Origin: a virus
Lineage: Duplodnaviria > Caudoviricetes
Direction: 5' to 3' (one strand)
Length of the DNA stretch: 64,000 nt
Virus record (IMG/VR): IMGVR_UViG_3300028025_003146
Coordinates: 1 to 64,000 of that record
Shown here: in pieces, positions 24,401-52,134 of the stretch
Position numbering within the stretch: the first letter of the stretch is position 1
Layout: the number at the start of each line of letters is the position of its first letter
The notes under the pieces: generated by a model
What the model saw: only the letters and a program-made list of their open reading frames with translations
Told to the model about the DNA's origin: nothing
Database searches by the model: none
Translations under genes and position numbers: made by a program

Positions 24401-27400
24401 TTTCCTCCTGTGCTAAGGACATCCCCAGCGGCAGATTTAAGAAGTGTATCTACAATATCTGGCTCTAAGGCTTTTTGAAGACTTCCCTGAGCATCCTTTA
24501 CGTATCCGTATGGTCTTTCTTTTTCAAGATTTTCAATCATCTTGCCATACATTAAGTTTTGTGCTTTAGGTGTTAGGCCAGAGCTTCCAAATAATCTTTT
24601 ACCCATACCAATAGATAAGGAAGTGGCACCCCACTTATCTCCTATTTTTCCAAACTTAGCTCCTACATTTTTAAAAGCTGTTCCCTTTAATACATTTCCG
24701 ATAACTCCACCAGCATTATATCCTGGTATCATTCCTCCAGAATTTCTTTTAAGTATTTTGAGAGCATGACTAATACCACTTGATGTGGTTAGTAATGTTC
24801 CTAGATTTGTTCCTCTTGCCCATAATGGCATTGAAGATCCAATTGTTCTATTTTGAGAAACCCAAGATAGTCTTCCGCCTCGTCTAGTAACAATTTGCCC
24901 TCTTTCTTTGCTTCCAGTTTTTGTACCAGGAATAAGACCACGGGATATTGCTTCATCTCTAGTAATATTTGGAGATGATCTTTCAGTAAATATTTGAGAT
25001 GCTGCAGAAAATAAATTTCTTCTTCCGCCAGCTCTTGCCCCGTCAATTTTAATTCCACGAAGTGCTGGCCTGTAGATTTCTTTTGCAAGCCTTTCAAATC
25101 CGAATGGGTCTGACCTGCCACCAATCATTCTATTTGAATTTTCTGGACTTTCTAAAGAAGCAATTAGTTTTTCTAAAGCTGCTTTAGTTCTTCTTGATGA
25201 CTGACTTCTATCTCCACCCAAAGTAACAGTTGCTTCATTCATCAAGTCATTTGGATCATATCCAGCTTGTAAAGTTTCTTTGATTCCAGAAGAAATTTGA
25301 CTTCCCGTTAAACCATTACCATTAGAATTAACTCCTAGATTTAGCCATGCGGGTAATAGTAAAGCTAGACCACTTAAATCATCTGTTATATGAGTTCTTT
25401 GAAGTCTTAAAGCTTTTCCACCTTTATTAAAATTAGGGCCACCGACTCCCTTTCCACCATTTATTGCTTGAAGCAATGGCAGATTTGCTGCTGTTGCTTC
25501 TTTGTTTACAACAAATTCTCCTGGAGTAAGCATTGCAGGAACTGTATCCGTATTACCTGTTCCTGGTACAATATTTCCTGCATTTAATCTTTTTGGAATA
25601 GTTGTTTCTGTGCTGTATCCAGCGCCAAATGTTTTTACACCTAGACCTTGTGCAATTTTATTAAGAAGGCTTCTAGTTCTTCCTGGGCGAAGAAGCTCTT
25701 TCATATTAGACTTTCCAGCCGCATTTACAACTGGCTGATTCAGCAGAGGAACTGTTGTTAGCCCAATTGTTCTTCCTTGTTGGCCCGCAATATCTACAGA
25801 AGCCTGTGCAATCATAGATTCTACCTGAGCATTTAATTGAATAATCTTAGCTCTTGCTTGATCTACTGTTAGCTTGCCAGCCTGTAGCTGTGCAACAATT
25901 GCTGCTGATTGTTTTGCAGCATTTGCAGTAAGCTCTGTCATTGTAGGAAGTAATGCCTGATATGAATCAGATAAAGATGATGTTATTAAGCCTGTAGACG
26001 CAACTTCTTTTTTAAGCAAAGCAATTTCTTCTTGTGATTGCATTGCAAGTGCACCTGTCATTGCATGCCACTTGGCTGCTTCTGCTGCAACAATACCTGT
26101 TGATGCTCCGCCTATTGATGTTAAGCCTGGAATCTTTGGAAGATCGCCATCCATATACATCTGAGGATTATTTCCAATCTTTTGATTTACTTTTGGTGCC
26201 CCAGGTACTACTCCGAAAATTGTTTGTGTTGATTTTTGATCTATCGTCATTCCAGCAACTGGATTAAGATGAGACATTGATCTTGTATCTTCTGGGCTAA
26301 TTAGTGGGTGATTTGGATCAACAACTCTTGCCCCGCTGCCCTTAACAACGTTACCCGCCAAGGTTGAAATTGTTGGTGCTGCAGATACTGCACCCGTCAT
26401 AGCTTTAGATTGAAGTAATTCAAATTCTGTTACGAGGCCTGCAATTGCAGTTTTTAATACTGTGGCTGCTTGAGCATCACTATAGAATGTAGCCTCAACA
26501 AGTGATCCTGCTTTTTGTGCTGCCAAAATCTCTGGCGTAAGCATCTTCCATCCTTCTCCACCTTTAAACAAGGCCCTGAAGTGTGACGCTCCTTTAATTA
26601 TATATCCAAAGAAGTTAGCAAGTACACCTGTTAACATAATTACTGGTCCGATGATTGCAGTAAATCCTGTAACAAATGTTAACAAAGATTTAATTGGGTC
26701 TGGCAATTTATTTATAAATTTAATAATTCCATCTACAACATTAATAAAGAATGTTTGAATCTTTAGGAACTCGTCACCAACTCCTGCAAGATCTGCTTTT
26801 AAGCCTTCTACCGCTCTCTTGTACTTTCCAGAAGCAGACTCTGTTACCATTGATAACTCTCGACCTGCTACCTGTGACAATTCTTGAGAACTTGCTTTCA
26901 TTAAATCCATTACCTGAAGAGTCTGACTTCCTTGCTTGCCTAGGTTTGCAAACAAAGCATTAAGTCTAGAGAACTGGAACTTACCAAACAACTGTTCAAT
27001 TGCTTGTTGCTTTTGTAGTGGATCTAGATTATCTAGTGCTGCTTGAAGAGCAAAAAGTGTTCCTGTTAAATCTCCAGCATTCTTTGCTACAATTCCACCT
27101 AGGTCAATTCCCATTTCAGAAAACTTTTCTTTTGCTACCTTTGTAGGATTAATTAAAGATGCTAGTGCTGATTTGAGAGCGTTAGCTCCTTCTGAAGCAT
27201 TAATTCCGCCTTCCTTCATTGCAGTTAAATACAATGCTAAGTCCTGTACGCTTCCGCCCAAACCTTGGATAACTGGACCAGCTTTTGGAATTGCTTCTAC
27301 TAAGTCATTAAGAGTTGTTGATGTTTGGTTTTCAACTGAGTTGAGAAAGTTAATAGAATCAGAAAGTTGATCTGTATTTTGCTTGAATGTAGTTTGAATT

Positions 27401-28296
27401 GCCAGGGTGGCCTTCATTGCTTCTTGTCTATCTACTTCTCCAAGCACAGCAAGTCTACTTGTTTCTTTAACAGAATTAAGAAGCTCATCGCCCTGCTTAC
27501 CAGTTGCTGCAATATCTGCAGCAAGAGTAATTGTATCTTTAAATGAAACTCCGTATGCCTTTGAAATCTCTTTAGCTGTTTGGGTAACTTCTCTTCTTAC
27601 TTTTTCAAGATCTGCTGCGGATGTTGCTGCTACTCCGCCGTATACTTTTGTAAGTCTGACTAACTCTGCATCTGCCATTCTAAATGCATCTGCTGCAGCT
27701 TTACCAAATGCCGCAAGAGGTACTGTAAGTCCTACTGTTAACTGACGACCTGCCCACTGAGTATTTTTACCCCAGTTAATAAGTTGAACTCCACCATCTT
27801 GAACAACCTTGTTCATAATCTGTAGTTCTTGTCTTGCTAAAGCGGTTTTGTTTTTTACAGCATCAAGACCCTGTGGAATATGTACGCTGTATTGCATAAG
27901 CCCCTGAGCATTTTTACCCATTGGCTGAATGATTGCATTTTGTAATGCTACTTGCTGCTTAGCAAGATCTCTGATTAAACCGCCTTGCGTCCTTGTGTGC
28001 TCACTAAATGTCTGAAAATACTGCTTCAGTTTCATTTGGCCCCTGTCTAGGTTGGTGCCAAACTTTTCAACATCCGATGTTAAGGTAACAAAGTGTGTTG
28101 CAAACTGACCAGTTCTTCTTAGGTTTTCACCAAAGGATCTGTTCATCGTCGCTACTTGGCTTGCAAGTCTTGCGTCCGATTGAATTATTTGTGCTTGAAG
28201 TTTTGAAAGAGAGGCTGCAACCTTATTGACATCTGCAATAAGACCTGAGAAATCTGCATTAGCAACTATATTAGTTACAATATTTTCATCAGCCAT
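21436..28296 (-). CDS. Tail tape measure protein (TP901-family domain)
   Basis: 2286 aa Ala/Gly-rich helical; GINASEGANALKS; DTVPAMLTPGEFVVNK; follows tail chaperones. Confidence 0.95.
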   Translation of the reverse strand: MADENIVTNIVANADFSGLIADVNKVAASLSKLQAQIIQSDARLASQVATMNRSFGENLRRTGQFATHFVTLTSDVEKFGTNLDRGQMKLKQYFQTFSEHTRTQGGLIRDLAKQQVALQNAIIQPMGKNAQGLMQYSVHIPQGLDAVKNKTALARQELQIMNKVVQDGGVQLINWGKNTQWAGRQLTVGLTVPLAAFGKAAADAFRMADAELVRLTKVYGGVAATSAADLEKVRREVTQTAKEISKAYGVSFKDTITLAADIAATGKQGDELLNSVKETSRLAVLGEVDRQEAMKATLAIQTTFKQNTDQLSDSINFLNSVENQTSTTLNDLVEAIPKAGPVIQGLGGSVQDLALYLTAMKEGGINASEGANALKSALASLINPTKVAKEKFSEMGIDLGGIVAKNAGDLTGTLFALQAALDNLDPLQKQQAIEQLFGKFQFSRLNALFANLGKQGSQTLQVMDLMKASSQELSQVAGRELSMVTESASGKYKRAVEGLKADLAGVGDEFLKIQTFFINVVDGIIKFINKLPDPIKSLLTFVTGFTAIIGPVIMLTGVLANFFGYIIKGASHFRALFKGGEGWKMLTPEILAAQKAGSLVEATFYSDAQAATVLKTAIAGLVTEFELLQSKAMTGAVSAAPTISTLAGNVVKGSGARVVDPNHPLISPEDTRSMSHLNPVAGMTIDQKSTQTIFGVVPGAPKVNQKIGNNPQMYMDGDLPKIPGLTSIGGASTGIVAAEAAKWHAMTGALAMQSQEEIALLKKEVASTGLITSSLSDSYQALLPTMTELTANAAKQSAAIVAQLQAGKLTVDQARAKIIQLNAQVESMIAQASVDIAGQQGRTIGLTTVPLLNQPVVNAAGKSNMKELLRPGRTRSLLNKIAQGLGVKTFGAGYSTETTIPKRLNAGNIVPGTGNTDTVPAMLTPGEFVVNKEATAANLPLLQAINGGKGVGGPNFNKGGKALRLQRTHITDDLSGLALLLPAWLNLGVNSNGNGLTGSQISSGIKETLQAGYDPNDLMNEATVTLGGDRSQSSRRTKAALEKLIASLESPENSNRMIGGRSDPFGFERLAKEIYRPALRGIKIDGARAGGRRNLFSAASQIFTERSSPNITRDEAISRGLIPGTKTGSKERGQIVTRRGGRLSWVSQNRTIGSSMPLWARGTNLGTLLTTSSGISHALKILKRNSGGMIPGYNAGGVIGNVLKGTAFKNVGAKFGKIGDKWGATSLSIGMGKRLFGSSGLTPKAQNLMYGKMIENLEKERPYGYVKDAQGSLQKALEPDIVDTLLKSAAGDVLSTGGKSLSKIDREILRTKFANWDSKSWTPATTKVRKQMFGMNKGGMVPGVQYFNRGGQVKGIQYFNKGTKKPVQPITFGSAYRQERAKGNIGAGMMSSGPMAGMGIGMGMGMAGQAIGGQAGQLMQFASVLPMLAPNMLGSLGKLAGGFKGVGGAAGIAGKAIGMAMRFALGPIGLLLTALTAGYAIFKKFQKEREQDRVEKTNSVGITEKSAAEAGIKYNNLSNSIKAVNDQLELTRAKGRNAYEALNSAGVQGLTLSIKELRAGIKNAKENQKELVGTFTDIDVSGDANKQAKVTEIATNLKAQFIAAGISAQEATNKIYAIISASDKADMAFNAISSKGFREITDSASAAIAMVKTLNKNMYDPASAGYDTDVLYGKDLGVVISNTTDALDDNLQTLMKTKKENGELMTQQEAMSEILASINEKEGSKLTLTQAQINSLKETHPALAEILNQSDNVAGMYSKWRLLLSGVRTDLKNITSEQAQALVAFEAALDSALAASEAKSSGSGIAAKSQKSIVALQKLIASGGAKAAANAQKTQDQIKEEIKLIDKKIDKINEEADARKKALEAAQDKENLSLEIQKAQLEYADKMAAGDMAGAAQAQLKIKQLVGERENQKAIDAIEENRAKREKELIAQREKLQAQSDKTAKNLTNAQNNATSAGERMNKVDQYQNEYQRLVKEQARIDVILEKDPSNKQALKDQQELVRGPLGDLAKQIAADSKGSDKVLAAELKKIFTGTLINEKGESLAGRVMTATHPKGSATYKAGAADAALKQDSAAALANAKAITGGKTLADLYNAYMGIGPAGSKTKDTAFEVTKTTTKTGVSLGGNTNKGGLEQWAKEQIVREYNLQPGQFFKYNGKTYKVNSATDIIRQKWGGGPFAAGDLLRVNDRINSLGAQQEGILMKPNFSGTIYPNVATMPQYDVPSYSTTGGFKSGTTSSSSSNVTINATLNFGESPKSGRELWKEFKQIAKAEGAKVGENIVIGGSY

Positions 28297-39736: not shown

Positions 39737-40450
39737 CTAGCTAATTGCCCATTTAGAGATAAGATCTCTTTCGATTGAGATATATTCACCCACGGTAAGG
39801 GCTCTGTTGTAAATAAGCAATTCGCCAATCTTAAATGCTCCGAATGTTGCAGAGTATCTTCCGATTACTTGTCCTGTCATGCTTGTTAGCCCGCCTGAAG
39901 ATGCACCGACTGCTACGTCAACACCATTTCTTCTAACTCTACGTGAGTTGTCAACATTGCTATAAACAAGTGTATAAATTTCTGGTGTTCCTGATAGTCC
40001 TACTGGAACAATAGCATTTTGATCATCGTTACCGAAACCAAACTTAAATGTGTTTGAAGATACGTATCCAGCAATAAGATTATTTCTTGTTCCTGAGTTC
40101 GTTCCACCAATTACATATGTGTTTGCATTTGCTGGCTTTGATGCAACATAAATAACTGTAAAGGAAGATGAGGCGATCCATGAGAGTGTTTGATCTGAGA
40201 ATGGTAGAAAGTCATCTACTCCATCAAAGTTAATTGCTGGAAGTCCTGCTATACCTGTTGCTTGAAATGTTGGTTGTGCTGCTGCAGTTGCTTGAACGCA
40301 ATGTCTAGCCAAACCAGACTTGTCATTCCATTGTGAAACTTTTCCAAGTCCGTCCCTTGTAATTGTAGATGGAAGACCAGCATCTAGCCATAGCTGCAAT
40401 CCAGACAAGGTGAATCTATTTCTTCTAAAGATAATATTATTACTAAGCAA
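39737..40450 (-). CDS. LamG/ConA-like lectin-domain protein (candidate receptor-binding)
   Basis: LQLWLDAG, VSQWNDKSG, INFDGVDDFL, IGELLIYNRAL. Confidence 0.8.
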   Translation of the reverse strand: MLSNNIIFRRNRFTLSGLQLWLDAGLPSTITRDGLGKVSQWNDKSGLARHCVQATAAAQPTFQATGIAGLPAINFDGVDDFLPFSDQTLSWIASSSFTVIYVASKPANANTYVIGGTNSGTRNNLIAGYVSSNTFKFGFGNDDQNAIVPVGLSGTPEIYTLVYSNVDNSRRVRRNGVDVAVGASSGGLTSMTGQVIGRYSATFGAFKIGELLIYNRALTVGEYISIERDLISKWAIS

Positions 40451-40898
40451 TTGGATCTTCCTCCATTATTTTTTCTAGTTCTACTAATGGTCTCTTAGGC
40501 CATGTAATTTCGGATACATCTTTGCTATTCTTAAAAGAAGAAATCTTCTTTCTATAATCTTTCCATGCTGCGAGAGACTTCTTGTCCATATCTGGGTCAC
40601 TCTCAACCCATGCTGTAGACATTAGCTCAAAGCTAATATGTGCGTTTACATTTTCTGTTTTTTCTTCATCTGACATCTTCTGTACTTCTAGTGCGTATAC
40701 TTTGCCACTCTTAACAAATGGTTCACAAGGCACTACTTTTTCTTGAAAGTCATCAAACTCAGGTGTTACTACTTCTAGCAAACCGTTTTCTTTTGCAAAC
40801 TTCTTCTCATCTATTGATTGAGGGATAGAAACATTTGGGAAAAGTTGAGATAGTGCGCCTACAGCGACTACTTTTTTGTCTTCTACTATGGCGTACAT
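40443..40898 (-). CDS. Tail-fibre assembly chaperone-like protein
   Basis: LFPNVS.P and AWKDYRKK...ITWP motifs; paralogue of 50604-51104. Confidence 0.7.
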   Translation of the reverse strand: MYAIVEDKKVVAVGALSQLFPNVSIPQSIDEKKFAKENGLLEVVTPEFDDFQEKVVPCEPFVKSGKVYALEVQKMSDEEKTENVNAHISFELMSTAWVESDPDMDKKSLAAWKDYRKKISSFKNSKDVSEITWPKRPLVELEKIMEEDPIA

Positions 40899-40908
40899 AT
40901 TATCTCCT

Positions 40909-41355
40909 TTAAACGTTTAAATCAGCGAATGCGTATGCACCGAATATTGTTGTGCCACCGTCTCTTGTCATAAAGTTAAGAACGGTTGTATTTGTAGATA
41001 GAAGTGGTGCTACGTTAGAAGCTCCTCCACCATCCCACTTAATTGATGCTGGCCATGTAACTGTAAAGGTACCGCCACCCTTAATTTCTAGCTGCCAGAA
41101 TTGTGCTTTTGGCTCTGTTCCTGTTGCTGGAATATTGCTAAATGCTACTGTGCAGTTTCCGCCTGCAACCATCTTAAATACGTTAGCAAGTGCTACGTTG
41201 CATGTTGCAACTCCTGAAGCGGCAATTGTTCCAAGATCTAGCTGTGCTGATGGCACATTAAGATATGGACGTGCTTGTCCGTTAAGAGGTGCTTGAAGGT
41301 ATGTGTATGTCCAAAGACCTGGGGTTACCTGTTGAGGTACGCTTGTTATTGGCAT
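40909..41355 (-). CDS. Fibre-associated beta-sandwich protein
   Basis: FSNIP...LEIKGGG.FTVTWP..IKW.GG...APLL...VLNF.T.DGGT; paralogue of 51104-51469. Confidence 0.7.
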   Translation of the reverse strand: MPITSVPQQVTPGLWTYTYLQAPLNGQARPYLNVPSAQLDLGTIAASGVATCNVALANVFKMVAGGNCTVAFSNIPATGTEPKAQFWQLEIKGGGTFTVTWPASIKWDGGGASNVAPLLSTNTTVLNFMTRDGGTTIFGAYAFADLNV

Positions 41356-41656: not shown

Positions 41657-43234
41657 TTACGGGTTTGACCAATGAGGCATACTTACGATATGCGGATATT
41701 GGGTAGTGTTTGAGTGTGTATCAAATTGATAATGGTGTACTATGTTATACGGCTGTAAATCTCCACCAAATGATAGAGTTGATCCATCTGTTCTTCTCAA
41801 ATTTTTATTAGCTGATCCTGGATCTACAAGATACAGATGTGGCCCAGGAGTATCTCCGTTTTGAGCAGTATATATTGAAATAAACTTGTCTTCCTTGAAC
41901 GGAACAATTGCAGTTCCATTAGAGCCATCTGTATTTCTAAAATAGAATAGCTTTGTTGGATCCTGAGTATTTACAATATGACAGTTAATTCCATTTCCAT
42001 AAAAGTGATATGGTGAATAAATTGCAACCCACTGATTATCCCATGTATTATGGTGCTTTTGTCCATACCAAGTTTCTGATTGATCAATTCCATAAGACGT
42101 TGTGTTTGCTAAGTTGATTTCAGTATCTGTAAATGCACCGATTCCTGAGTTACCAGCGGTTCCTTGAGATGACATGTTCCAATATCCGTATCTCTGTGCA
42201 TAACCGTCATGATTAAATCTTCCAAATCCTACAACACCGTTGTCTCCCATTACAATCTTCATGTGATATGAAGGCTCTGCTCTTGTTGAGCCAGCTTGCG
42301 CCCATGTGAAGTCATAGAATGCATAATTTTTTGCTGTTGCTAAGTGGTTTCCTGTTTGTGGCCCTGCTGCTTTTGCTTCTGACAGGAACTTATGAAGTGT
42401 CCCTGGCTTGTGGCTAAAATCATTTAGGCTATAGCTTGTATTTCTCCATACGTGAAGTCTTATTGCATTAGCAGTTGTAGATTCTACAACAGCAAGCATT
42501 TTGGTTCTATCATTGTAAGATGACATTCCACGATTTGTGCGTCCCGCCCAAGTTGCGTAAGTAGCTGAGTTTAAAGAAACTCTGTCAAAATATCCGTATG
42601 CTGCACCTCTAGGTCTAATGTTAAATTCTGCATCATTAGAGTAATGGCTTACACGTTGTCTTACACCGTAAGCTCCTATAATAGTTCCGCATCTAATTAA
42701 ATATTGATTAGTATCGTCTGCTCTATTCATCCAGTTTCCAGCAAAACCACCATGTAAATTAGGGCGGTATAGCATGTGTCCATCGGCAGAACCCCATACA
42801 GTCGATCCGCCGAAATATGTAGTTACTGTTGATTGACCGTAATTTCCTTGAGTGTATGTGTATGATCTAAAGCTTTCATACCAGTTTGGCATTGAAGAAA
42901 GTTCTGGAGACTGATATCCTGCTAACCAGCCTGGCATTGCATTTGTTCCAATAGATTGAAAATCTGAATTAATTATATTGAATCCAGCTTTATCGTTGTT
43001 ATCGTTAGTCCAGATAGCAAATGTTGGTAGAGGAGAAATTTCTGTATTATTTCTTGATATTACAGGAGAAGCCTCTTTATTTCCAACTATTGATAGCTGT
43101 TGAGAAATTGTTGTTGACGTTGCTGAAATTGCTGTATTATTTGCATTTGCAATTGGAGTAATGATTGCTGCAATTGCAGATTCAAGACCTGGAACAATTA
43201 TTTGTGAAGTGGTTGTTTCTGTATTATTTGGCAT
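41657..43234 (-). CDS. Putative receptor-binding virion protein, paralogue 2
   Basis: 525 aa, aromatic/Asn/Gly-rich beta protein, colinear with 43244-44806. Confidence 0.7.
   Translation of the reverse strand: MPNNTETTTSQIIVPGLESAIAAIITPIANANNTAISATSTTISQQLSIVGNKEASPVISRNNTEISPLPTFAIWTNDNNDKAGFNIINSDFQSIGTNAMPGWLAGYQSPELSSMPNWYESFRSYTYTQGNYGQSTVTTYFGGSTVWGSADGHMLYRPNLHGGFAGNWMNRADDTNQYLIRCGTIIGAYGVRQRVSHYSNDAEFNIRPRGAAYGYFDRVSLNSATYATWAGRTNRGMSSYNDRTKMLAVVESTTANAIRLHVWRNTSYSLNDFSHKPGTLHKFLSEAKAAGPQTGNHLATAKNYAFYDFTWAQAGSTRAEPSYHMKIVMGDNGVVGFGRFNHDGYAQRYGYWNMSSQGTAGNSGIGAFTDTEINLANTTSYGIDQSETWYGQKHHNTWDNQWVAIYSPYHFYGNGINCHIVNTQDPTKLFYFRNTDGSNGTAIVPFKEDKFISIYTAQNGDTPGPHLYLVDPGSANKNLRRTDGSTLSFGGDLQPYNIVHHYQFDTHSNTTQYPHIVSMPHWSNP
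42522..42573. repeat. 52-bp exact direct repeat, copy 1
   Basis: gacattccacgatttgtgcgtcccgcccaagttgcgtaagtagctgagttta, identical at 44097-44148. Confidence 0.95.
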
Positions 43235-43243
43235 TTTTTCTCC

Positions 43244-44806
43244 TTAGACCGTTGTCCAGTGTGGTACTACTGAAATATGTGGGTACATTGTTGTGTGAGA
43301 CATTGTATCAAAAGTAGAATAGAATGTTACGTTCCAGGGCTGCAGGTCTCCACCATTAGCAATGGTTGTTCCATCATTTCTATATCCATTTTCAAAAGCT
43401 GCTTGTGGGTTTGCGTAATATAGGTGTGGCCCTGGCCCATCTGCATTTTGTACGGAGTAGCACATTATAAACGAGCTTTCTCCAAATGGAACTGGTGATG
43501 TTCCCGCTGATCCGTCTGTATTTCTCCATGTGTAGTATTTTGTTGGATCTTGAGTATACACACAGTGAAGGTTAATTCCATTGTGGTAGTAGTGATATGG
43601 TGCGTATGAAATTACCCAGTTATTGTCCCATGAAATATTTGTTCTAATTCCATAAGTATCTCCTTGGTTAATTCCATAAGATGTTGTATTTCCTAGGTTC
43701 GCTCCGCTATCGGTAAATGCTCCAGTTCCACTGTTTCCTGGTGTACCTGGATTAGATGGAATAAACCATCCGTATTGCTGAGCATTGCCTTCTGGAGAAA
43801 ATCTTGAGAAGCCAACTGTTCCGTTGTCTCCCATAATTAATCTCATCACATAAGCTGCCTCTGGATTTGCTGAGCCTGCTGATGTCCATGTAAAATCATA
43901 AAATGCATAACTTGCTGTTGTTCCTGAAGGACCCGCTGTTTTTGCTTCTGACAAGAATAAATGAAGGTCTCCAGATTCGTAATTGCTAGCATTTAAATCA
44001 TATGATGGGTTTGTGTTCTTCCATACGTGCAAGCGAATTTGATTTGCTGTATTTGATTCAGCAACTGCAAGTGTTTTAGTTCTGTCGTTGTAAGAAGACA
44101 TTCCACGATTTGTGCGTCCCGCCCAAGTTGCGTAAGTAGCTGAGTTTAGATTTACCTGATCTACGAAACCGTAAACAGATCCTCTCATTCTAACTTGAAA
44201 TGTTGAGTCTGTCGAATAGTGATTCATTCTTGGACGAACACCACGAACACCAATAATAGTTCCAGATCGTTTTGTGAACTGGCCCCAGTCTCCTGCTCTA
44301 TTAAAATTAGTATTTCCGTAATTTCCAAATGTTTGGAAAGAGTAGAGGTGGTTTCCTTCGTGGCCATTCATATTTGTTCCAGCGCCTGAATAAGTTGTGT
44401 TACCACCCTGACCGATATTTCCGTTTGTATATGTCCAGCCTCTGTAATCTTCATACCAGTTACTTAGATCTGATAGAGCTGCGTCTGTCCATCCACCTTG
44501 ACGGTTATTTAGTCTGCTTGTTGCAACAACTTGAAAATCAGAATTTATAATTGAATATCCAGCTTTAGTATCATTATTTTGATTTGACCAGATAGCGAAC
44601 ATTGGATAAGGAGAAACCTCTGTATTGGTTCTTGATGTAGCAGCATTTGCAACTTTTCCAATTAGGCTTGAAAATTGTCCTGGAATTGCACTTTGCAATG
44701 TTGATACAGCAGCAGATGTCGTATAAGCAATTGGCTGAACAACAGCTGAGATGTTTGTTTCGAATCCAGGAATGTAGACCTGATTTGTAGTCGTATTAAC
44801 TGCCAT
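43244..44806 (-). CDS. Putative receptor-binding virion protein, paralogue 1
   Basis: 520 aa, colinear with 41657-43234. Confidence 0.7.
   Translation of the reverse strand: MAVNTTTNQVYIPGFETNISAVVQPIAYTTSAAVSTLQSAIPGQFSSLIGKVANAATSRTNTEVSPYPMFAIWSNQNNDTKAGYSIINSDFQVVATSRLNNRQGGWTDAALSDLSNWYEDYRGWTYTNGNIGQGGNTTYSGAGTNMNGHEGNHLYSFQTFGNYGNTNFNRAGDWGQFTKRSGTIIGVRGVRPRMNHYSTDSTFQVRMRGSVYGFVDQVNLNSATYATWAGRTNRGMSSYNDRTKTLAVAESNTANQIRLHVWKNTNPSYDLNASNYESGDLHLFLSEAKTAGPSGTTASYAFYDFTWTSAGSANPEAAYVMRLIMGDNGTVGFSRFSPEGNAQQYGWFIPSNPGTPGNSGTGAFTDSGANLGNTTSYGINQGDTYGIRTNISWDNNWVISYAPYHYYHNGINLHCVYTQDPTKYYTWRNTDGSAGTSPVPFGESSFIMCYSVQNADGPGPHLYYANPQAAFENGYRNDGTTIANGGDLQPWNVTFYSTFDTMSHTTMYPHISVVPHWTTV
44097..44148. 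repeat. 52-bp exact direct repeat, copy 2
   Basis: Identical to 42522-42573. Confidence 0.95.
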
Positions 44807-45147: not shown

Positions 45148-45480
45148 TTAAATTACTCCCATGTTTGTATAAATTGTGTAGTTATCTATCGAAGATTGGA
45201 TGGTAGCAACGTTTGCTGCTCCAGCCGAATTAACTGCAACGATCTGTGTAGACCCTGCTGTGTTAACTGTTGCAACAGCTCCAGAAGAAGCTGTTTGAAT
45301 TTCTGTCACCTTCGATGATGTAGCAGAAACAATATCATTTACTCCTAGGAGGTTGCCCATTGACTCTAGAGCCTTTGCTAGAAAGACTAGGTCCTGAGAA
45401 TTTAGAGTTGAACTCGACAGGGCTGTTACCTTTGTCTTAAAAAGATCAACTTGTGATGATAAACTTGAATAATCTGGCAT
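45148..45480 (-). CDS. Helical fibre-anchor protein (MPDY family, copy B)
   Basis: First ~50 aa match 51469-52134. Confidence 0.7.
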   Translation of the reverse strand: MPDYSSLSSQVDLFKTKVTALSSSTLNSQDLVFLAKALESMGNLLGVNDIVSATSSKVTEIQTASSGAVATVNTAGSTQIVAVNSAGAANVATIQSSIDNYTIYTNMGVI

Positions 45481-45603: not shown

Positions 45604-46554
45604 TTAGAGAATTCCTCCATAGTATAAGGTTATGCCCATTAAGACCACTGGGATCACCAAAGCAAAAATTGCCTTATAGTAATCTTTGAGAGGGGTTCTA
45701 AAGTAGCTCTTACCTACAACTAAACACTTGTGTGCTGGAGACAACATATATCCTGCGTAGTCGACTGCAAAGAATAGCGGCAAAGTTTCTATGCCAAATA
45801 CTCCTACTGAGAGGACGACAAATCCAGCAAACTTGCTAGAACTTCCCAAGGCAAAACTTGCCAAGAATCCAGCAAAGGCAACTAGGATCAATAGATTATT
45901 TTTATGGGCACTTTCTACCCATGCATTTATTGTATCAAAATTAGCCTTTACAATATTGCTCAGGATAATAACAATTCCAGTAAATAGAATTACTCTTGCA
46001 TAATCAAGCAGTTGCTTTCGATCACGCTTTGCATCTGCCTCAAGTTGCCATGGCTGCTTATCGCTTTTCTTTAAAGGCTTGTCTGGGATATTAATTTCAA
46101 TATCATCTTCCTTTAAAATCTTAAATATATAGAAAAGGATTACTATTAATGTTGTAGCAATAAGTGGCCAAAGTCTGCTCATCAACTCCCAGTAACTAAT
46201 ACTTAGTGCTGCCATTGGGAGAAGAACTGTTGCTTCTAGTGGTGACCAAAAGTAGAAATGATGCGTAGAAAGGTAATCAATGATTCCGTAATTTTTACGC
46301 TTCTTTTGATCTTCTGGGGCAATTGTATCTAGTGCACCAGCCGAAACAGCGACACGACCTGAAATCGGCAGTACGCCAGAGAACAGAGAAATAAGAGCAA
46401 CTACTGCTCTTTTAGATTTAACATTTTTGGCAATCCAGCTGTAAAATGGCAGGAATACCTGGGTTTTCTTTGCAGCAAAGGACAATGCCATTACTGACGC
46501 TAGCAGTATTAAGAACTGCTGATTATTTAAAAACAAAGAGGGTGTAATTTCCAT
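45604..46554 (-). CDS. Multi-pass membrane protein, DUF401/ion-transporter-superfamily-like
   Basis: Many hydrophobic segments; SGVLPISGR, THHFYFWSPLE, GYMLSPAHKCL...YF. Confidence 0.72.
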   Translation of the reverse strand: MEITPSLFLNNQQFLILLASVMALSFAAKKTQVFLPFYSWIAKNVKSKRAVVALISLFSGVLPISGRVAVSAGALDTIAPEDQKKRKNYGIIDYLSTHHFYFWSPLEATVLLPMAALSISYWELMSRLWPLIATTLIVILFYIFKILKEDDIEINIPDKPLKKSDKQPWQLEADAKRDRKQLLDYARVILFTGIVIILSNIVKANFDTINAWVESAHKNNLLILVAFAGFLASFALGSSSKFAGFVVLSVGVFGIETLPLFFAVDYAGYMLSPAHKCLVVGKSYFRTPLKDYYKAIFALVIPVVLMGITLYYGGIL

Positions 46555-46569
46555 CTTTATAACCTTTCA

Positions 46570-46727
46570 GCATTTATAGAAATCTAATTTAGATACCTAT
46601 ATAAACACAAGCGCTAGCATCTTTGAGGTCTTAATTCGTGTCATTAAGACGTACAAATATAATAGGCACGTGTGCCTTTGTAGCAAAATACGGTCTTTTA
46701 TATGCTCGAATCCGTATATGATACAAA
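46570..46727 (-). ncRNA. Candidate structured cis-regulatory leader (four hairpins)
   Basis: Stems at 46677-46727, 46664-46677, 46628-46650, 46570-46608; last abuts the SD. Confidence 0.4.
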
Positions 46728-46729
46728 AT

Positions 46730-48376
46730 CTATTCTTTGCTTACAACAACTATGTATAAGCCGTTCCACCAGTCCGTATCAGACTCTAATGAATTTAATA
46801 TCTTCTTACTATATAATATTTTTAATCCTGATTCAAGTATTCCCTTATGGGCACCTTTTACAACATCCGTCCAGTTTGCGTCATCAAATATTAAAATAGA
46901 CTGTTGGGCAAAAGTTGCGGAATAATACTTTACTGCATTTTTTGTAGACTCAAAGTCGTGAGGTCCATCATAAAAGAAAAGATCAATATCCGATATAGGC
47001 TTTAGGTTAACCTTAAACATATCTGAATTAGATATAAATACTTTATTATTACCTTTGTATGGATTAATATTTTTCTTAAACTCTTCTAAGGAATTGGTGT
47101 CTGGTGTTTCCCACCCTTCTCTTACGGCCTGTGGAGCCTCCTGCCAGGTGTCTACGAAGTATGCCTGCAAGTTATTGCCACTCAATGCTGCAGCGGCTGT
47201 AGCACCCTGATAAGAACCAATTTCGAGGTATTTAGAAGAAGACTTAGCCAAACCATTTATTAATGACTGAACTCTAGTCGATGTTAAACCTGGTATATTA
47301 ATTTCAATTGGGTTATTTACAGAATCAACTAATTGCTGTGCAACAATGGCGACCTTTGGACTAATATGATTGCCATATTTTGCAGCCATTATTTTGTCAC
47401 AATAACCACAATCCCAGCAATCAAATTTACAATTTTTGATCTTATTACGCCAGATGGCAATAGGCTTGTCAACCATATTGGTCTCTTCAATAAAATCATT
47501 AAAGCTATCAAATAGAATTTCTTCATTGTTTGCATATCTTTTGATTATATCCATAGTTTCTTTTAGGCGGACATGCGACTCTCTTCCGTGCATCTTAATA
47601 ACATCAATTCCTAGGTCGTCTATAAACTCTTGCCAGTCTTCACGCCATGGTGGGAAATTGGCTGTCTTTAAAGATACGGCAAAATCTTCATGATCCCATT
47701 TCGGACAAGACACTCTGCTTATTGGGTCATTAAAATATTGAGGTCCGTCTGTTCTAGTATTATTAAACTGATAATGCTCATCCATCATTACGCATCCGCC
47801 GTAGCACCCTTCATTGGCAAGCAAGGATATCTTAACGCCGAACTGAGATTTAGCTTTTTTAAAACGCTTTAGCTTCTCGTGATCACGCATTAAATCTCTA
47901 TCAAGATTAATATAATCAAATCCAGCTTTTGCAAGGTGCTCTATGTCCCTTGGCTCTGACACATTTCTGAGAATGGTATTTTTTACAAATAGATCTGGAA
48001 ATGCCTTTTTTATTTGTCCTGTTGCCATCCAGTGTGTGTGAGGTATTGTTGCTGACTTAATACCCGAATCGTATACGGGTCTAAAGTTTTCTATAAACAA
48101 ATCTAAATTCTGTTGAGAGGGTCTAACTTGTATATTATTAAAAACGGCAGAAGCGGTTACCCCAGTCTCGTTTTGAATATGTAAGGCCAGGCCTATAAGA
48201 TAATTATGGTCTTCTTCTCCGCCGTTAAATACATCACCCATGGCGTCTTGGTCAAAAGGAGATACCCTACAGGTAAAATAAAAGTCATATATAAATGACT
48301 TATATTCTTTTAGAAAAGAAATAAACTCATTTAACTGATTTTCAGTTAGCTTGGGGTTTAGTGGTACGCTAAACAT
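46730..48376 (-). CDS. U32-family (Fe-S hydroxylase-like) domain fused to class I SAM methyltransferase
   Basis: LDRDL.RD, LLANEGCYGGC, IDVIKMHGRE, CKFDCWDCGYC; C-terminal YLEIGSYQG, FFYDGPH, LIFDD. Confidence 0.82.
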   Translation of the reverse strand: MFSVPLNPKLTENQLNEFISFLKEYKSFIYDFYFTCRVSPFDQDAMGDVFNGGEEDHNYLIGLALHIQNETGVTASAVFNNIQVRPSQQNLDLFIENFRPVYDSGIKSATIPHTHWMATGQIKKAFPDLFVKNTILRNVSEPRDIEHLAKAGFDYINLDRDLMRDHEKLKRFKKAKSQFGVKISLLANEGCYGGCVMMDEHYQFNNTRTDGPQYFNDPISRVSCPKWDHEDFAVSLKTANFPPWREDWQEFIDDLGIDVIKMHGRESHVRLKETMDIIKRYANNEEILFDSFNDFIEETNMVDKPIAIWRNKIKNCKFDCWDCGYCDKIMAAKYGNHISPKVAIVAQQLVDSVNNPIEINIPGLTSTRVQSLINGLAKSSSKYLEIGSYQGATAAAALSGNNLQAYFVDTWQEAPQAVREGWETPDTNSLEEFKKNINPYKGNNKVFISNSDMFKVNLKPISDIDLFFYDGPHDFESTKNAVKYYSATFAQQSILIFDDANWTDVVKGAHKGILESGLKILYSKKILNSLESDTDWWNGLYIVVVSKE

Positions 48377-48381
48377 TTATC

Positions 48382-48939
48382 CTACAAATCTATTTTTGAT
48401 AAAGTATCCGCATCATAATGAACGCCAAAATGATTATTTAATAGTATACCAGCTTCTACCCAATCTTGGCAAGAGATGATCTTTTGATAGATTTCATTCT
48501 TTTTATTTAAGTGGTACTTTTCACATTTATAGTCGTCCTGCTTTAAAAACTCTGGTGTAGATTTTAATAACAAAAGTTTATTTGAATAGTATTTTTCTAG
48601 CATGAATATCATTGCAGCTTTTTGGAAAAGGCATGCATTCTGTTTATCTTCTTCAGTCAAGGTATACTTAAACTTACCCTCTACCTGCTCAAATGGCTTA
48701 CCCTCTAGTTGTGATAAATGTAAGGTGTTTGGCCTAAGCTTTATATAGCCTTTATACTTTCCAACAAACTGATACGCAAGAGCAACTTCTTTTGTTACCA
48801 CCGTCATTTTTGGAAGGTTCATATACAGCATCTGGCTTTCATCTACTGCCCCTACGAGCAAATTGCTCCATTCACCAATATGCTGGATGTAATTATTTTT
48901 CTCCGTTTTATCTTCTGGATCAAATAAAAAGTAAATCAT
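48382..48939 (-). CDS. Hypothetical protein
   Basis: 185 aa, ATGA-coupled to upstream gene. Confidence 0.7.
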   Translation of the reverse strand: MIYFLFDPEDKTEKNNYIQHIGEWSNLLVGAVDESQMLYMNLPKMTVVTKEVALAYQFVGKYKGYIKLRPNTLHLSQLEGKPFEQVEGKFKYTLTEEDKQNACLFQKAAMIFMLEKYYSNKLLLLKSTPEFLKQDDYKCEKYHLNKKNEIYQKIISCQDWVEAGILLNNHFGVHYDADTLSKIDL

Positions 48940-49667
48940 TGAATTTCTTCCCAGAGTCCACTTTCTGAATCGGCAAGCTCTAATCTTTTTCTTGTCTCTA
49001 TTTGCAATAAATCTAGGTGTTTATTTGTTTCTATAGCTTTAACAACTGCAGTTTCAAGAGCTATTTCTCTAACTTCTTTTGGCAATTGATCAATGGCCTC
49101 CATGTTTCCGCCATTAACTCTTCCATAAAACATTAAGTCGTAAGCTGCTTGCGCTCCTAGTCTAATTCCCCAAAGCTCTGCCTCAAGCCTTTCTTCTTCA
49201 TCATGATCTCCAATTATATCCATAATCAGTCTACCGTCAGAAAGTCTACCCTCATCAGAAGAGTTAAATTTATCTATTAGCATCATATACTTATCTCGTT
49301 CTTCGTATACTAAGCTGACACTATTTTTTTGATTTAACAGAACTCTTTCTTTTTCTTTAATATTAAGCTCATGAATTTTAATTTCTGCAGGAGAAGTAGA
49401 AGCACTAATTTTTTCTTTTTCTAAATCAATTTCTAGTCTAGTTCTTTCTATTTTAAGCTCTTGCTCTACAATCATATTCTCTCTTGCTCCTAGCTCAAGC
49501 AAAAGCTGTCTAAGTTTTCCAAATGGAGTAAATTGCGCTCCACCAACAAAATTATCTATTTTAAATACTGGCACCCCCCAATGTCTATTTGTAGCATAAA
49601 GAAGAATATCTTTTTGTGATTTTGTATAGCCAGAAACATCCGACGTTATATCGTTTATATATCTCAT
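48936..49667 (-). CDS. Coiled-coil hypothetical protein
   Basis: 243 aa, long heptad region, RLGAQAAYDL...GRVNGGN. Confidence 0.75.
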   Translation of the reverse strand: MRYINDITSDVSGYTKSQKDILLYATNRHWGVPVFKIDNFVGGAQFTPFGKLRQLLLELGARENMIVEQELKIERTRLEIDLEKEKISASTSPAEIKIHELNIKEKERVLLNQKNSVSLVYEERDKYMMLIDKFNSSDEGRLSDGRLIMDIIGDHDEEERLEAELWGIRLGAQAAYDLMFYGRVNGGNMEAIDQLPKEVREIALETAVVKAIETNKHLDLLQIETRKRLELADSESGLWEEIQ

Positions 49668-49682
49668 TTTATTACCTATCTA

Positions 49683-50603
49683 TTAAGAACGTTGTGCTGA
49701 GTAGCCAGAACTTCTTCCTGGAACTCCCTTAGACTGCATTGATCCTCCGCCTTCAAAGCCAGAATCTGTAGCGTAGTTAAATCTCCAAGATCTGTTATTT
49801 TGCTCTCCGTTATAGTTTCCAAGCATGTATTGCCATGCTTGTCCCATATCAAAATTTTCTTCACCACAATTTGTAATTGGCTTTCCAACAGTTCCTATAT
49901 TTGTTTCAGTAGCAACACTAAATCTTCTTAAGTTGTTTCCACCTGCATAGTTACCCTCATTACCTGCGTATAGAGTAGTTAACTTTGAAGAAATTCCTTT
50001 TTGTTGTCCGTGAACGCCATTGCAAGGTGATTGAGCTTGAGTTTCTGTTGCAAAAGTTAATTTAACACCATTATCATCTCCATAGTGAAAACCTTTTGTT
50101 TCATGATAAAAAGATGACATTGTTTGAGAGTTGGATCCAAAGCTTTTGCCAAGTGAACTCATCCAAGACTGTGTTGTGAAATTAAACTTCATAATTGCTG
50201 CTACACCTACTTCGCCTGGTGCACCATATGCGTACAGTTGCTCTTGATGCATAATTGTTCCTGCATTTCCTACTGCATATGGGGCGGAAGGACCAATAAT
50301 TGATGTGTTTGTTCTCATATTGTAACGATTGGTTTGCGAGCTTGATCCTCCAACTGTATTATTGGCTTTAAGAAGATAGGCAAATGTATCATCACACATT
50401 CCACCAGGATATCCACTAGAGTTATTTAGCGGACTACCTAAATCAATTGTTGTATCAGTTGAGTGTGTTACTTCGTTAACGCTTGTCCATGGCGAACTGT
50501 TTCTGTATCCAGCAAGCACGTAACCCTTTGTAATAACCTGTCTCAAAAGAAATGCTACGGGCCCACCTGAACCAGACATATATCTATTTTGCGGAAATGG
50601 CAT
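49683..50603 (-). CDS. Kelch-like beta-propeller protein (putative fibre tip)
   Basis: About six repeats ending (R/K)(F/Y/L)x(F/Y/M/V)xT(D/E/N/Q)(T/S); follows a fibre chaperone gene. Confidence 0.72.
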   Translation of the reverse strand: MPFPQNRYMSGSGGPVAFLLRQVITKGYVLAGYRNSSPWTSVNEVTHSTDTTIDLGSPLNNSSGYPGGMCDDTFAYLLKANNTVGGSSSQTNRYNMRTNTSIIGPSAPYAVGNAGTIMHQEQLYAYGAPGEVGVAAIMKFNFTTQSWMSSLGKSFGSNSQTMSSFYHETKGFHYGDDNGVKLTFATETQAQSPCNGVHGQQKGISSKLTTLYAGNEGNYAGGNNLRRFSVATETNIGTVGKPITNCGEENFDMGQAWQYMLGNYNGEQNNRSWRFNYATDSGFEGGGSMQSKGVPGRSSGYSAQRS

Positions 50604-51104
50604 TTAAACCTCCACAGTATATTTTAGTTTGACTGAAGCAATTCCTAATGTGGGCCATGTGATATTAAATGGGTTTGTTTGTTCTGTAATATCTCTTAAA
50701 GATTTTCTATATGCAATAATCTTTTCTTGATCTGAATCTGAAAAAGAAGAAAATACATCTGGCATAACTAGGTAGTCTGTTGCGGTAATAGTGTTATCTC
50801 TATGATATTTTACTAGATTCCACTGATTTGCTATTACTTCTGCTTTTTCTTCATTCGATAAATCAATAAGCACATATGAGCCTTTAACTTTTTTACCAGC
50901 AAGGACTCTTTCAAAAGAAACTTTCTTTTTAGTTGGATCGAATGATGGGGTTTCTGCTTCATCTTCACATATATACCAATTATCAAAGCCTTCAAGGTGT
51001 GATTCTAAAATTGGTGAAGGGAAATGTGTTGAAGGATACATCTCTCTTAGCTGTTGCTCATTTACAATTTGAGTAATATGCTTATCTATAACTTGTGCGT
51101 ACAT
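50604..51104 (-). CDS. Phage tail-fibre assembly chaperone
   Basis: W..VK..RD..I.ATDY, YRKSLRDITEQ..PFNITWP. Confidence 0.82.
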   Translation of the reverse strand: MYAQVIDKHITQIVNEQQLREMYPSTHFPSPILESHLEGFDNWYICEDEAETPSFDPTKKKVSFERVLAGKKVKGSYVLIDLSNEEKAEVIANQWNLVKYHRDNTITATDYLVMPDVFSSFSDSDQEKIIAYRKSLRDITEQTNPFNITWPTLGIASVKLKYTVEV

Positions 51105-51469
51105 TATCGTGAGTCCTTCATTGATATTGATCCTCGCCAGTTTGTTCCATTATCGTATGTAATAAATGTTATAACATCGATTCCTCCAGAAGTGAGGGCT
51201 GGAGCTGTAGCTCCTGGATATTTTGCATTTGCAAATGTTATTGTGTATGCTCCTCCGCCAGTTAATTGTAGAGAAAAAGAAACAACTCCCGTTGTTGGGG
51301 TATTAATAATAGTAAATGTTGTTGCTGCTGTTACTGTGCAAGTAAAATCATTTGATAGAGATAAGTCTAAGTTTACTGCACCTGAACGAGACCCTAGGTC
51401 TAGTCTTCCAGTCTTATATGTATTAAGGGATCCAACTTGATCTCCGATAACATCGCTTAATAGTGCCAT
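51104..51469 (-). CDS. Fibre-associated beta-sandwich protein
   Basis: LDLSLSNDF, LTGGGAYTITF, APALT..GIDVITF.TYDNGTNW. Confidence 0.72.
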   Translation of the reverse strand: MALLSDVIGDQVGSLNTYKTGRLDLGSRSGAVNLDLSLSNDFTCTVTAATTFTIINTPTTGVVSFSLQLTGGGAYTITFANAKYPGATAPALTSGGIDVITFITYDNGTNWRGSISMKDSR

Positions 51470-52134
51470 TAGATTACTCTCCATCCTTGAGATGTATTTG
51501 AAAATACTAATTCTACAGCTTTGCTCTTTACGTTAAAAACTAGATCTTCCGCTATTCCAGCTATCAAGCTTCCGTTTCTTGCAACTGTAAAGTTAGTTGT
51601 TTGTGAAGTTCCAGCTGAGTCAACAATGATTACTGTGTCTCCAATTGAAGGTGCGGCTGGCAATGTTATTACAAGACCTGCTGCTGGTGTTATAAGAAGT
51701 CTATCTCCTCTAACTGCTGTATATGAAGCAGTTATATTTGTCCAAGTATTTGGAATCTTTCCTGCAACTAGTGAATTTAATCCTGTAACTGTTGAAGCAA
51801 GTGCGGAAATCTGTCCGCCTGCTGTACTTACATAGTTTTCAGTTGCATAGATTCTTGTTTCGTGATCAGCAACATCAGCTTCAACATCAGTAATTCTTTG
51901 TCCGTTAACTGAGCTGTTAATTGATGTAATAGCTGCGTCTCTTGCCGCATTAATAGCAGCAATTCTTTCAGTTGTAACTGTAAGAATATCGTTAACGCCC
52001 ATAGATTTTGCTAATGTATCAAGTGCTGAGGCCAGCAAAACTAGGTCGTTTGCATCTAAGGTTGTAGATGCAAGAGCGCTTACCTTTGTTTTAAATAGTT
52101 CAACCTGAGTTTGCAGTGTTGTATAATCTGGCAT
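51469..52134 (-). CDS. Fibre-anchor protein (MPDY family, copy A) with C-terminal gp34-like repeat domain
   Basis: ITLPAAPSIGDTV.IVD..G.....NFTVARNG...LVF.....GWRV. Confidence 0.72.
   Translation of the reverse strand: MPDYTTLQTQVELFKTKVSALASTTLDANDLVLLASALDTLAKSMGVNDILTVTTERIAAINAARDAAITSINSSVNGQRITDVEADVADHETRIYATENYVSTAGGQISALASTVTGLNSLVAGKIPNTWTNITASYTAVRGDRLLITPAAGLVITLPAAPSIGDTVIIVDSAGTSQTTNFTVARNGSLIAGIAEDLVFNVKSKAVELVFSNTSQGWRVI

Follow-up and report, generated by a model that had tools for sequence, protein, structure and literature searches.

Why would a phage carry, among its fibre genes, a protein that joins a relative of the U32 iron-sulfur (Fe-S) enzymes to a methyltransferase, and what would such a protein modify? 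The question is raised by a gene on the minus strand (46730..48376) of a 64,000-nucleotide stretch of Caudoviricetes DNA, referred to here as the window, which comes from an 81.9 kb viral record of IMG/VR (IMGVR_UViG_3300028025_003146) estimated to be 76% complete. Here, we describe the evidence that the N-terminal half of the 548-residue product belongs to the U32 superfamily, though highly divergent, and that the C-terminal half is a class I S-adenosylmethionine (SAM) methyltransferase, likely O-methyltransferase-like. We give an even chance to the reading that the two halves form a tailoring enzyme, performing a U32-like hydroxylation and then an O-methylation, with a peptide or protein as the most likely target. 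A preliminary description had named a series of motifs in both halves, and all of them are found at their places in the open reading frame (ORF). The features of the gene are as follows:

46730..48376, minus strand: the whole ORF, 548 residues plus stop, with an ATG start; a U32-like, putatively Fe-S-binding domain fused to a SAM methyltransferase.
47372..48376, minus strand: the N domain (residues 1-335), a divergent U32-superfamily TIM barrel with a C-terminal four-Cys extension; AlphaFold 2 predicted local distance difference test (pLDDT) score 93.1, VIA Z 16.7 to 5d88, hhalign 96.2-96.9%.
47705..47815, minus strand: NEGC..C..C (residues 188-224), comprising NEGC at 188-191, C191-x3-C195, and C224, and also E189 and E200-H201.
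47579..47596, minus strand: KMHGRE (residues 261-266), by alignment the counterpart of the U32 "K-I-E-G-R" motif.
47399..47431, minus strand: CKFDCWDCGYC (residues 316-326), the invariant four-Cys tail C316-x3-C320-x2-C323-x2-C326.
46733..47296, minus strand: the C domain (residues ~361-548), a class I SAM methyltransferase (Methyltransf_24, PF13578), likely O-methyltransferase-like.
47204..47224, minus strand: EIGSYQG (residues 385-391), SAM-binding motif I, with E385 and G387/G391 invariant.
46958..46972, minus strand: YDGPH (residues 469-473), with D470 at the first metal-binding Asp position of COMT-type O-methyltransferases and H473 near the catalytic Lys position.
46871..46888, minus strand: FDDANW (residues 497-502); in alignments, D498-D499 fall on the D-N metal ligands and W502 on the W of "DNxxW".

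The whole protein matches phrog_1458 (function unknown) over its full length (E 8e-166), and the N half alone matches phrog_36869. All eight Cys residues of the protein are in the N half. In an alignment of 56 N-domain homologues, sharing 20-49% identity with the N domain of the window, C191, C195, C224, C316, C320, C323, and C326 are invariant, and N80, K132, T134, D159, R160, R164, E189, E200, H201, K261, G264, and R265 are at least 90% conserved. Given this degree of conservation, the motifs of the N domain are not due to chance.

The closest structural relative of the N domain is a U32 protein. The AlphaFold model has a pLDDT of 93.1 and a predicted template modelling score of 0.91. When it was compared with 48,161 chains using VIA, which is independent of Foldseek, the U32 protein Mk0906 (5d88_A) ranked first, with Z 16.7 and a root-mean-square deviation (rmsd) of 3.1 over 222 aligned residues; the next chain scored Z 13.1, i.e., 3.6 Z units lower, and 5d88 was the only U32 structure found. 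Foldseek returned many TIM barrels from the PDB, with 5d88 having the best TM-score and rmsd among the matches listed. In the BFVD viral structure library, the best match outside the family was a coliphage protein named "Peptidase" (E 8e-11). Sequence profiles point in the same direction. The U32 reference set comprised 44 distinct proteins matched by PF01136 in E. coli K-12 and in bacterial genomes; the 28 with at most 480 residues were used first. Aligning the 56-sequence N-domain alignment with these 28 proteins, hhalign gave a probability of 96.2 and E 2.3e-9 over 223 columns, with P of at least 0.35 in all 26 controls (one reversed and 25 column-shuffled). By subgroup, the probabilities were 96.9% for TrhP-like proteins (24 sequences; E 1.9e-10), 89.8% for RlhA-like proteins (12 sequences), and 52.7% for UbiU-like proteins (five sequences); we leave the nearest U32 subfamily unnamed, since the order of the scores tracks profile depth.

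Conserved positions of the two families also coincide. N80, R160, C191, C195, and K261/G264/R265 of the N domain correspond to N67, R142, C193, C197, and K287/G290/R291 of TrhP, respectively. In the KxxGR motif, K261, G264, and R265 are at least 96% conserved, and in the U32 set, the E. coli TrhP residues K287, G290, and R291 show 86% conservation each. The CX3C pair of the U32 Fe-S motif, formed by its third and fourth Cys, is matched in the alignment by C191 and C195. Together, the fold match to 5d88, the profile-profile match, and the coinciding conserved positions lead us to place the N domain in the U32 superfamily, as a highly divergent member with a rearranged metal site that is not filed under PF01136.

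Several results weigh against this assignment and against the enzymatic reading. The [4Fe-4S]-binding motif of U32 proteins is CX6CX15CX3/4C (accessible text of PMC6747719), and its CX6C half, i.e., the first two Cys, has no counterpart in the N domain; C177, which is fully conserved in U32 proteins, aligns with a non-Cys position. With these two Cys absent, the ligation of a cluster, if one exists, must differ. PF01136 (gathering score 22.4 bits) was not listed for the protein at E ≤ 1, nor anywhere in the whole record at E ≤ 10, and in bacterial genomes, a PF01136 search did not pick up the stand-alone homologues described below. Pfam and NCBIfam scans of the N half returned no family, and a Pfam scan of ten distant N-domain homologues of 400-580 residues likewise returned none. 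Searching PDB sequences with the N domain, by phmmer and by profile hmmsearch, yielded no U32 chain, only de novo TIM barrels and noise. There was no hhalign signal with a three-sequence UbiV-like profile or with E. coli UbiU or UbiV as single sequences. Thus, where the preliminary description had seen a U32-family TIM barrel, the barrel is borne out by the model, with 5d88 as its closest structure, and the superfamily fold and the significant remote homology hold; Pfam-level membership and the full Cys motif do not.

Compared with the canonical U32 Fe-S proteins (PF01136: E. coli TrhP/YegQ, RlhA/YdcP, and UbiU-UbiV; Mk0906, 5d88), then, the phage N domain has in common the TIM barrel and the N, R, KxxGR, and CX3C positions. 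Unlike them, it falls below every hidden Markov model threshold, lacks both the CX6C half and the U32 C-terminal domains, and has the invariant C224 and the CX3CX2CX2C tail. The tail probably either forms a second metal or Fe-S site or supplies the ligands that the cluster otherwise lacks. We also considered and rejected a radical SAM identity: there is no PF04055 match, and the CX3CX2C stretch (residues 316-323) lies past the barrel, not after the first strand.

The C domain belongs to a recognized family. It matches PF13578 (Methyltransf_24) at residues 384-499 (E 1e-10; 42.9 bits vs a cut-off of 26.3), with the ExGxxxG motif conserved, in agreement with the SAM methyltransferase proposed earlier for this half. 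The model of the domain (pLDDT 92.2) resembles generic class I methyltransferases in Foldseek. In VIA, the top four matches are all O-methyltransferases, namely MeT1 (6g7d, Z 16.6), 5x7f (16.5), 8c9v (16.2), and 4oa5 (16.2), and structures of TrmR score Z 15.5 and 14.3. The only PDB sequence matched by the C-domain profile is 3ntv, a putative caffeoyl-CoA O-methyltransferase from S. aureus, and the match is weak (E 0.075); hhalign with a five-sequence PF01596 profile gave 85.9% and E 5e-6. Both alignments, weak as they are, place D470 on the metal-binding Asp and D498-D499..W502 on DNxxW. D470, D498, and D499 are invariant in 23 sequences, the second ligand being D where DNxxW has N. Some homologues carry the JGI label "predicted O-methyltransferase YrrM". 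On the strength of the top fold matches and the alignment with the metal-binding D and DNxxW, the C domain is likely O-methyltransferase-like. On the opposite side of the balance, PF01596 is not listed for the protein at E ≤ 1, and tRNA m1A58 methyltransferases (TrmI) come within 1 Z unit of the O-methyltransferases in VIA, such that the fold alone decides no chemistry (O- vs N- or C-methylation). Relative to the cation-dependent class I O-methyltransferases (COMT, CCoAOMT, TrmR, and M. hassiacum MeT1; PF01596 and the related PF13578), the phage domain has the Rossmann fold, acidic residues that align with the metal-binding D and D-N, and a W that aligns with that of DNxxW; it differs in matching PF13578 only, in having His473 rather than Lys near the position of the catalytic base, and in its tied fold scores with m1A58 enzymes.

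Do the two domains act together? Neighbourhoods were compared in two sets of viral loci: 80 close IMG/VR loci, and 80 more distant loci whose contigs partly overlap those of the first set. In the distant set, the domains are fused in 66 of 80 loci, are encoded by adjacent, separate ORFs in 11, and occur without the methyltransferase in three. This natural fission and fusion supports a joint function. A precedent that the preliminary description had invoked is confirmed by the accessible text of PMC6599085: in the B. subtilis trmR(yrrM)-trhP2(yrrN)-trhP1(yrrO) operon, hydroxylation followed by O-methylation produces mo5U34 in tRNA. As in that operon, a U32-type enzyme is genetically coupled to a COMT-like SAM O-methyltransferase; more generally, in bacteria an O-methyltransferase (TrmR, UbiG) acts after the U32 hydroxylase. 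The B. subtilis system differs in comprising separate proteins, with two U32 paralogues and a tRNA substrate, whereas the phage has a single polypeptide (or the two adjacent genes), PF13578 in place of PF01596, and no tRNA link that we could find.

In two of the distant loci (L253 and L254), the ORF of the N domain runs on for ~520 residues without matching the methyltransferase profile, and in two further proteins (P0125 and P0126), the C half that follows the U32-like domain is unlike the methyltransferase. These alternative C-terminal partners could hint at other follow-up chemistries.

The enzyme gene has constant companions. The gene cassette in the window comprises, in addition to the enzyme gene:

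49683..50603, minus strand: W306, Gly/Ser/Asn-rich, probably a Kelch-like propeller (phrog_1417); cassette partner.
48936..49667, minus strand: W243 (phrog_1409), helical, of no known family; cassette partner.
48382..48939, minus strand: W185, of no known family; cassette partner.
45604..46554, minus strand: W316 (phrog_14035), a membrane protein of the DUF401/TIGR00529 type, also CitMHS-like, separated from the enzyme gene by 175 bp on its downstream side.

Across the 80 close loci and in phage P-HM2, the gene order is W306 (one to three copies), W243, often W185, the enzyme, and W316. Where a close locus extends at least 3 kb upstream (n = 69), W243 and W306 are each present in 67 and W185 in 42; where it extends at least 4.5 kb downstream, W316 follows the enzyme gene in 47 of 60. 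In the distant set, W243 and W306 are each retained in 55 of 56 loci and W185 in 51 of 56, with W316 in only 20 of 57. The Ralstonia jumbo phage RP31 has a W243 homologue (hmmsearch E 8e-35), a U32-like gene without the methyltransferase, and a DUF401-like gene (W316, E 1e-84) with an overlapping start, in that order. W306 occurs in one to three tandem copies elsewhere and, in other phages, as the C-terminal domain of proteins of 620 to >1160 residues, its last ~60 residues being the most conserved part; this C-terminal position in long proteins fits a distal fibre-tip domain. The setting in a fibre operon, also part of the preliminary description, is upheld by co-directional genes for a phrog_5838 virion structural protein, a PF16778 tail-fibre assembly chaperone, and several tail-fibre-like proteins. 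A prediction of a complex between the N domain and W243 scored 0.00, which counts neither for nor against binding, and a Protein Atlas search with W243 gave scores of 0.80-0.81, within noise.

The family is large. At least 1875 database proteins match at E ≤ 0.001 (among 8000 scored candidates), and a relative is encoded in 583 of 598 pattern-matched IMG/VR stretches. Using tblastn, we found 126 phage records, with coverage of at least 80% of the query in 121; T4-like myoviruses of Synechococcus or Prochlorococcus, with ~42-44% identity, account for nearly all, and three Ralstonia jumbo-phage records match the N half only. The fusion is thus common in cyanomyoviruses and uncultured phages, and present in most T4-like cyanophage isolates; cultured carriers include P-HM2, S-CAM4, Syn19, and S-RIM2, and in the P-HM2 record, the homologues are labelled "T4-LIKE GC 351-354". 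An exhaustive HMMER search with residues 1-345 yielded 303 representatives, many of them stand-alone proteins of 330-380 residues. In literature searches on U32 with cyanophage or RiPP (ribosomally synthesized and post-translationally modified peptide), on DUF401, and on the cyanophage structural proteome, whose scope did not include supplementary tables and subscription journals, no paper on the family was found.

The contexts of the stand-alone bacterial homologues are new in this analysis, and they bear on both chemistry and substrate. A search with a 14-sequence alignment provided 16 loci (L009-L024) in metagenome-assembled genomes (MAGs) with stand-alone homologues; one of these (L009) is a phage contig in a bin, with the complete cassette. 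In three Campylobacterota loci (L020-L022), APH/choline-kinase-like paralogues lie directly 3' of the gene; L020 and L021 also have SecA-like and M50 genes, with HlyD in L020 and a Trp-halogenase in L021. (The 81.9 kb phage record has no Trp-halogenase.) In four loci from Smithella/Syntrophaceae (L016-L019), the gene sits in one common cluster, with GNAT and TauE genes in all four; a sulfotransferase, an ATP-grasp enzyme, and a GLUG-repeat protein in L016, L017, and L019; and CysD and CysN/C, for synthesis of 3'-phosphoadenosine-5'-phosphosulfate (PAPS), in L016-L018. In L013, the gene directly precedes genes that Pfam identifies as a TolC-like OEP, a C39-peptidase ABC exporter, HlyD, and an M23 peptidase; in L015, ORFs sized like these exporter genes follow it, matched by size only. 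In L011 and L012, the gene is beside radical SAM/SPASM enzymes. The bacterial genomes with a homologue carry a separate, canonical U32 gene elsewhere, and there is no DUF401 homologue near any of the bacterial loci.

Two suggestions follow from these neighbourhoods. Since the domain is paired, in different lineages, with a methyltransferase, with kinases, or with a sulfotransferase, all of which cap hydroxyls, it would itself make the hydroxyl. Since exporters and maturases adjoin the bacterial homologues, peptide substrates are pointed to. These bacterial neighbourhoods strengthen the case for hydroxylate-then-methylate chemistry. The likeness to RiPP-type clusters (radical SAM/SPASM maturase, C39-ABC exporter, HlyD, and TolC) lies in the stand-alone bacterial homologues being inside or at the head of such clusters. 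The differences are that no precursor peptide was identified, that the phage cassette has no radical SAM enzyme, C39 exporter, or recognizable RiPP recognition element, and that the candidate substrate in the phage is a folded propeller protein. A search for precursor-peptide ORFs beside the bacterial homologues identified none and gave one weak lead, in L013 and L015.

The lead is a small ORF (L013 86-163; L015 181-327), whose product ends in ..D(F/L)MNIVSSAWHE; it lies immediately 5' of the U32-like gene at the head of the C39-ABC exporter operon and overlaps that gene. It may encode a precursor peptide, but the MAGs are related to each other, and each contig ends close by. In L011 and L018, the stand-alone U32-like gene is present as two tandem copies, with the radical SAM/SPASM gene between them in L011, an arrangement that, by analogy, recalls the UbiU/UbiV and TrhP1/TrhP2 pairs. 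The 362-residue gene after the Halarcobacter homologue was considered as a second U32-like subunit and as kin of the RP31 DUF401 protein; both were rejected, as it is an APH-like kinase paralogue, unrelated to the RP31 protein.

How might the phage enzyme work? In the mechanism that we infer, at least one [4Fe-4S] cluster would be bound by C191 and C195 with C224 and/or the tail Cys residues (C316-C326), and a second metal site is possible. A C-H bond, most likely on an aromatic ring or otherwise activated, would undergo O2-independent hydroxylation, the oxygen coming from host prephenate. The fused COMT/CCoAOMT/TrmR-like domain, which is probably metal-dependent, would then O-methylate the new hydroxyl with SAM, creating a methoxy group. 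The products of the cassette would be the first substrate candidates: the W306 propeller, or W243/W185. Prephenate has been proposed as the oxygen donor for U32 proteins (PMC10990095), and UbiU/V provide an example of Fe-S hydroxylation in ubiquinone synthesis (PMC6747719 and PMC10990095, both as far as their accessible text goes). The 81.9 kb record (76% complete) yielded no chorismate mutase, and any prephenate must therefore come from the host; this dependence tells against the mechanism. So do the facts that, as of the accessible text of PMC10990095, even canonical U32 proteins had yet to be shown to hydroxylate directly in vitro, that the contexts of four of the 16 bacterial loci (L010, L014, L023, and L024) are uninformative, and that neighbourhood evidence is circumstantial.

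A more specific form of this reading, which we regard as doubtful, is that a residue of the fibre-tip propeller, or of a small partner protein, is hydroxylated and then O-methylated, independently of O2, by the phage's U32-type enzyme with its rearranged cluster site. This would be RiPP-like chemistry on a virion protein, in phages of oxygenic and other aquatic bacteria. To our knowledge, the substrates of U32 proteins are limited to RNA and ubiquinone, and we know of no other enzymes that hydroxylate aromatic rings with prephenate as the oxygen donor. If the propeller or a partner protein is modified, the phage protein would be the first of the U32 enzymes known to act on a protein, and it would found a clade in which the bacterial members act on peptides destined for export, to which methyl, phosphate, or sulfate groups are then added. 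Should the fibre-tip propeller be the target, a phage receptor-binding protein would be chemically modified, which bears on the host range of globally abundant cyanophages. In any case, a large clade listed in PHROG as "unknown function", with a Cys arrangement unlike that of U32 proteins, has contexts that point to peptide or protein substrates, and three facts (the O-methyltransferase fusion, the natural split forms, and the kinase- and sulfotransferase-paired bacterial relatives) make the hypothesis that the domain produces a hydroxyl a testable one.

There are three alternatives to this reading. The substrate could be a small molecule or lipid, e.g., a quinone-like or other aromatic compound tailored as by UbiU/V with UbiG, with the DUF401-like protein importing the substrate, exporting the product, or anchoring the reaction at the membrane. 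Consistent with this idea, W316 follows the enzyme gene in most close loci (47/60), RP31 retains the W243 homologue, the U32-like gene, and the DUF401-like gene in succession, and UbiU/V act on membrane-bound aromatic rings, with an O-methylation after each hydroxylation (accessible text of PMC6747719). However, the link to W316 fades in the distant set (20/57, vs 55/56 for W243 and W306) and is absent from the bacterial loci, where C39-ABC exporters and radical SAM/SPASM enzymes point to exported peptides; moreover, no substrate is known for DUF401, on whose function a literature search yielded nothing. We consider tailoring of a small molecule unlikely. The hydroxylation step itself is questioned by another alternative, in which the TIM barrel of the N domain binds metal but serves for other redox or lyase chemistry, as a protease or maturation factor for fibre proteins (cf. 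the name "peptidase U32"), or as a scaffold, and the methyltransferase modifies a group that is already there, e.g., a sugar hydroxyl or a side chain. In its favour, the canonical Cys motif is half missing, sugar O-methyltransferases (MeT1, SpnH) are among the best fold matches of the methyltransferase, the N domain lacks the methyltransferase in three of 80 loci, including L253 and L254, or is followed by another C half (P0125, P0126), and the accessible text of PMC10990095 describes no U32 protein whose mechanism has been demonstrated in vitro. This is set against the independent pairing with three hydroxyl-capping chemistries (methyl, phosphate, and sulfate), for which a newly made hydroxyl is the simplest explanation, and against the clustering of the residues common to U32 proteins at the conserved motifs of the barrel; a non-hydroxylase seems rather improbable to us.

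Least probable is modification of RNA, with the protein acting as a phage TrhP plus TrmR to make 5-methoxyuridine, or a hydroxy- or methoxy-pyrimidine akin to it, in tRNA or rRNA of the host or the phage. The domain logic is that of the B. subtilis operon, and a fusion of a hydroxylase with TrmR exists for TrhO (both PMC6599085, accessible text). TrmR is also among the fold matches of the C domain (Z 15.5 and 14.3), and the best profile match of the N domain is to the TrhP-like subgroup, although this may only reflect the deeper profile (24 sequences vs 12, 5, and 3). On the other hand, neither PF01136 nor PF01596 is matched, and the C-terminal region of TrhP is replaced by a different, four-Cys extension. 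The bacterial homologues have clusters for export and tailoring around them, rather than translation genes, and the canonical U32 gene is elsewhere in those genomes. The phage gene is constantly linked to the W306 propeller, W243, and W185 inside the fibre block, and there is no tRNA gene in the window; the target is therefore probably not RNA. In being phage-borne within a fibre block, and fused or adjacent to a methyltransferase, the protein differs from known U32 proteins, and its context points away from both RNA and quinones. The preference of the preliminary description for a protein or small molecule over RNA agrees with this gene context, as far as sequence can indicate.

The fibre region around the cassette has further features, all on the minus strand. 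In the 175-bp gap between the enzyme gene and W316 (46555-46729), a small GC hairpin is followed by a T-rich run (46677-46664), and TATAAATG, which we take to resemble a T4-type late promoter, lies ~20 nt before the W316 start. A promoter scan was not above chance (23 found vs 25.4 expected), and terminator-like sites numbered nine vs 4.3 expected, including a weak hairpin after the stop of the enzyme ORF. W110 (45148-45480) and W221 (51469-52134) have a common 101-residue N-terminal module (41% identity, E 7e-21), which has the look of an attachment domain shared by two different fibre proteins, one on either side of the enzyme cassette. W126 (51104-51484) and a 148-residue ORF (40909-41355) are distant paralogues (31% identity, E 2e-8), each directly upstream of a gene the size of a tail-fibre chaperone (50604-51104 and 40443-40898, respectively). 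The region seems to be built from repeated fibre cassettes. Two tandem paralogues of 525 and 520 residues (41657-43234 and 43244-44806), 54% identical over 520 residues and without a PHROG match, are kept in only eight of the 80 close loci; their products are probably alternative fibre or receptor-binding proteins. Farther away, the structural region includes a very long ORF of 2286 residues (21436-28296).

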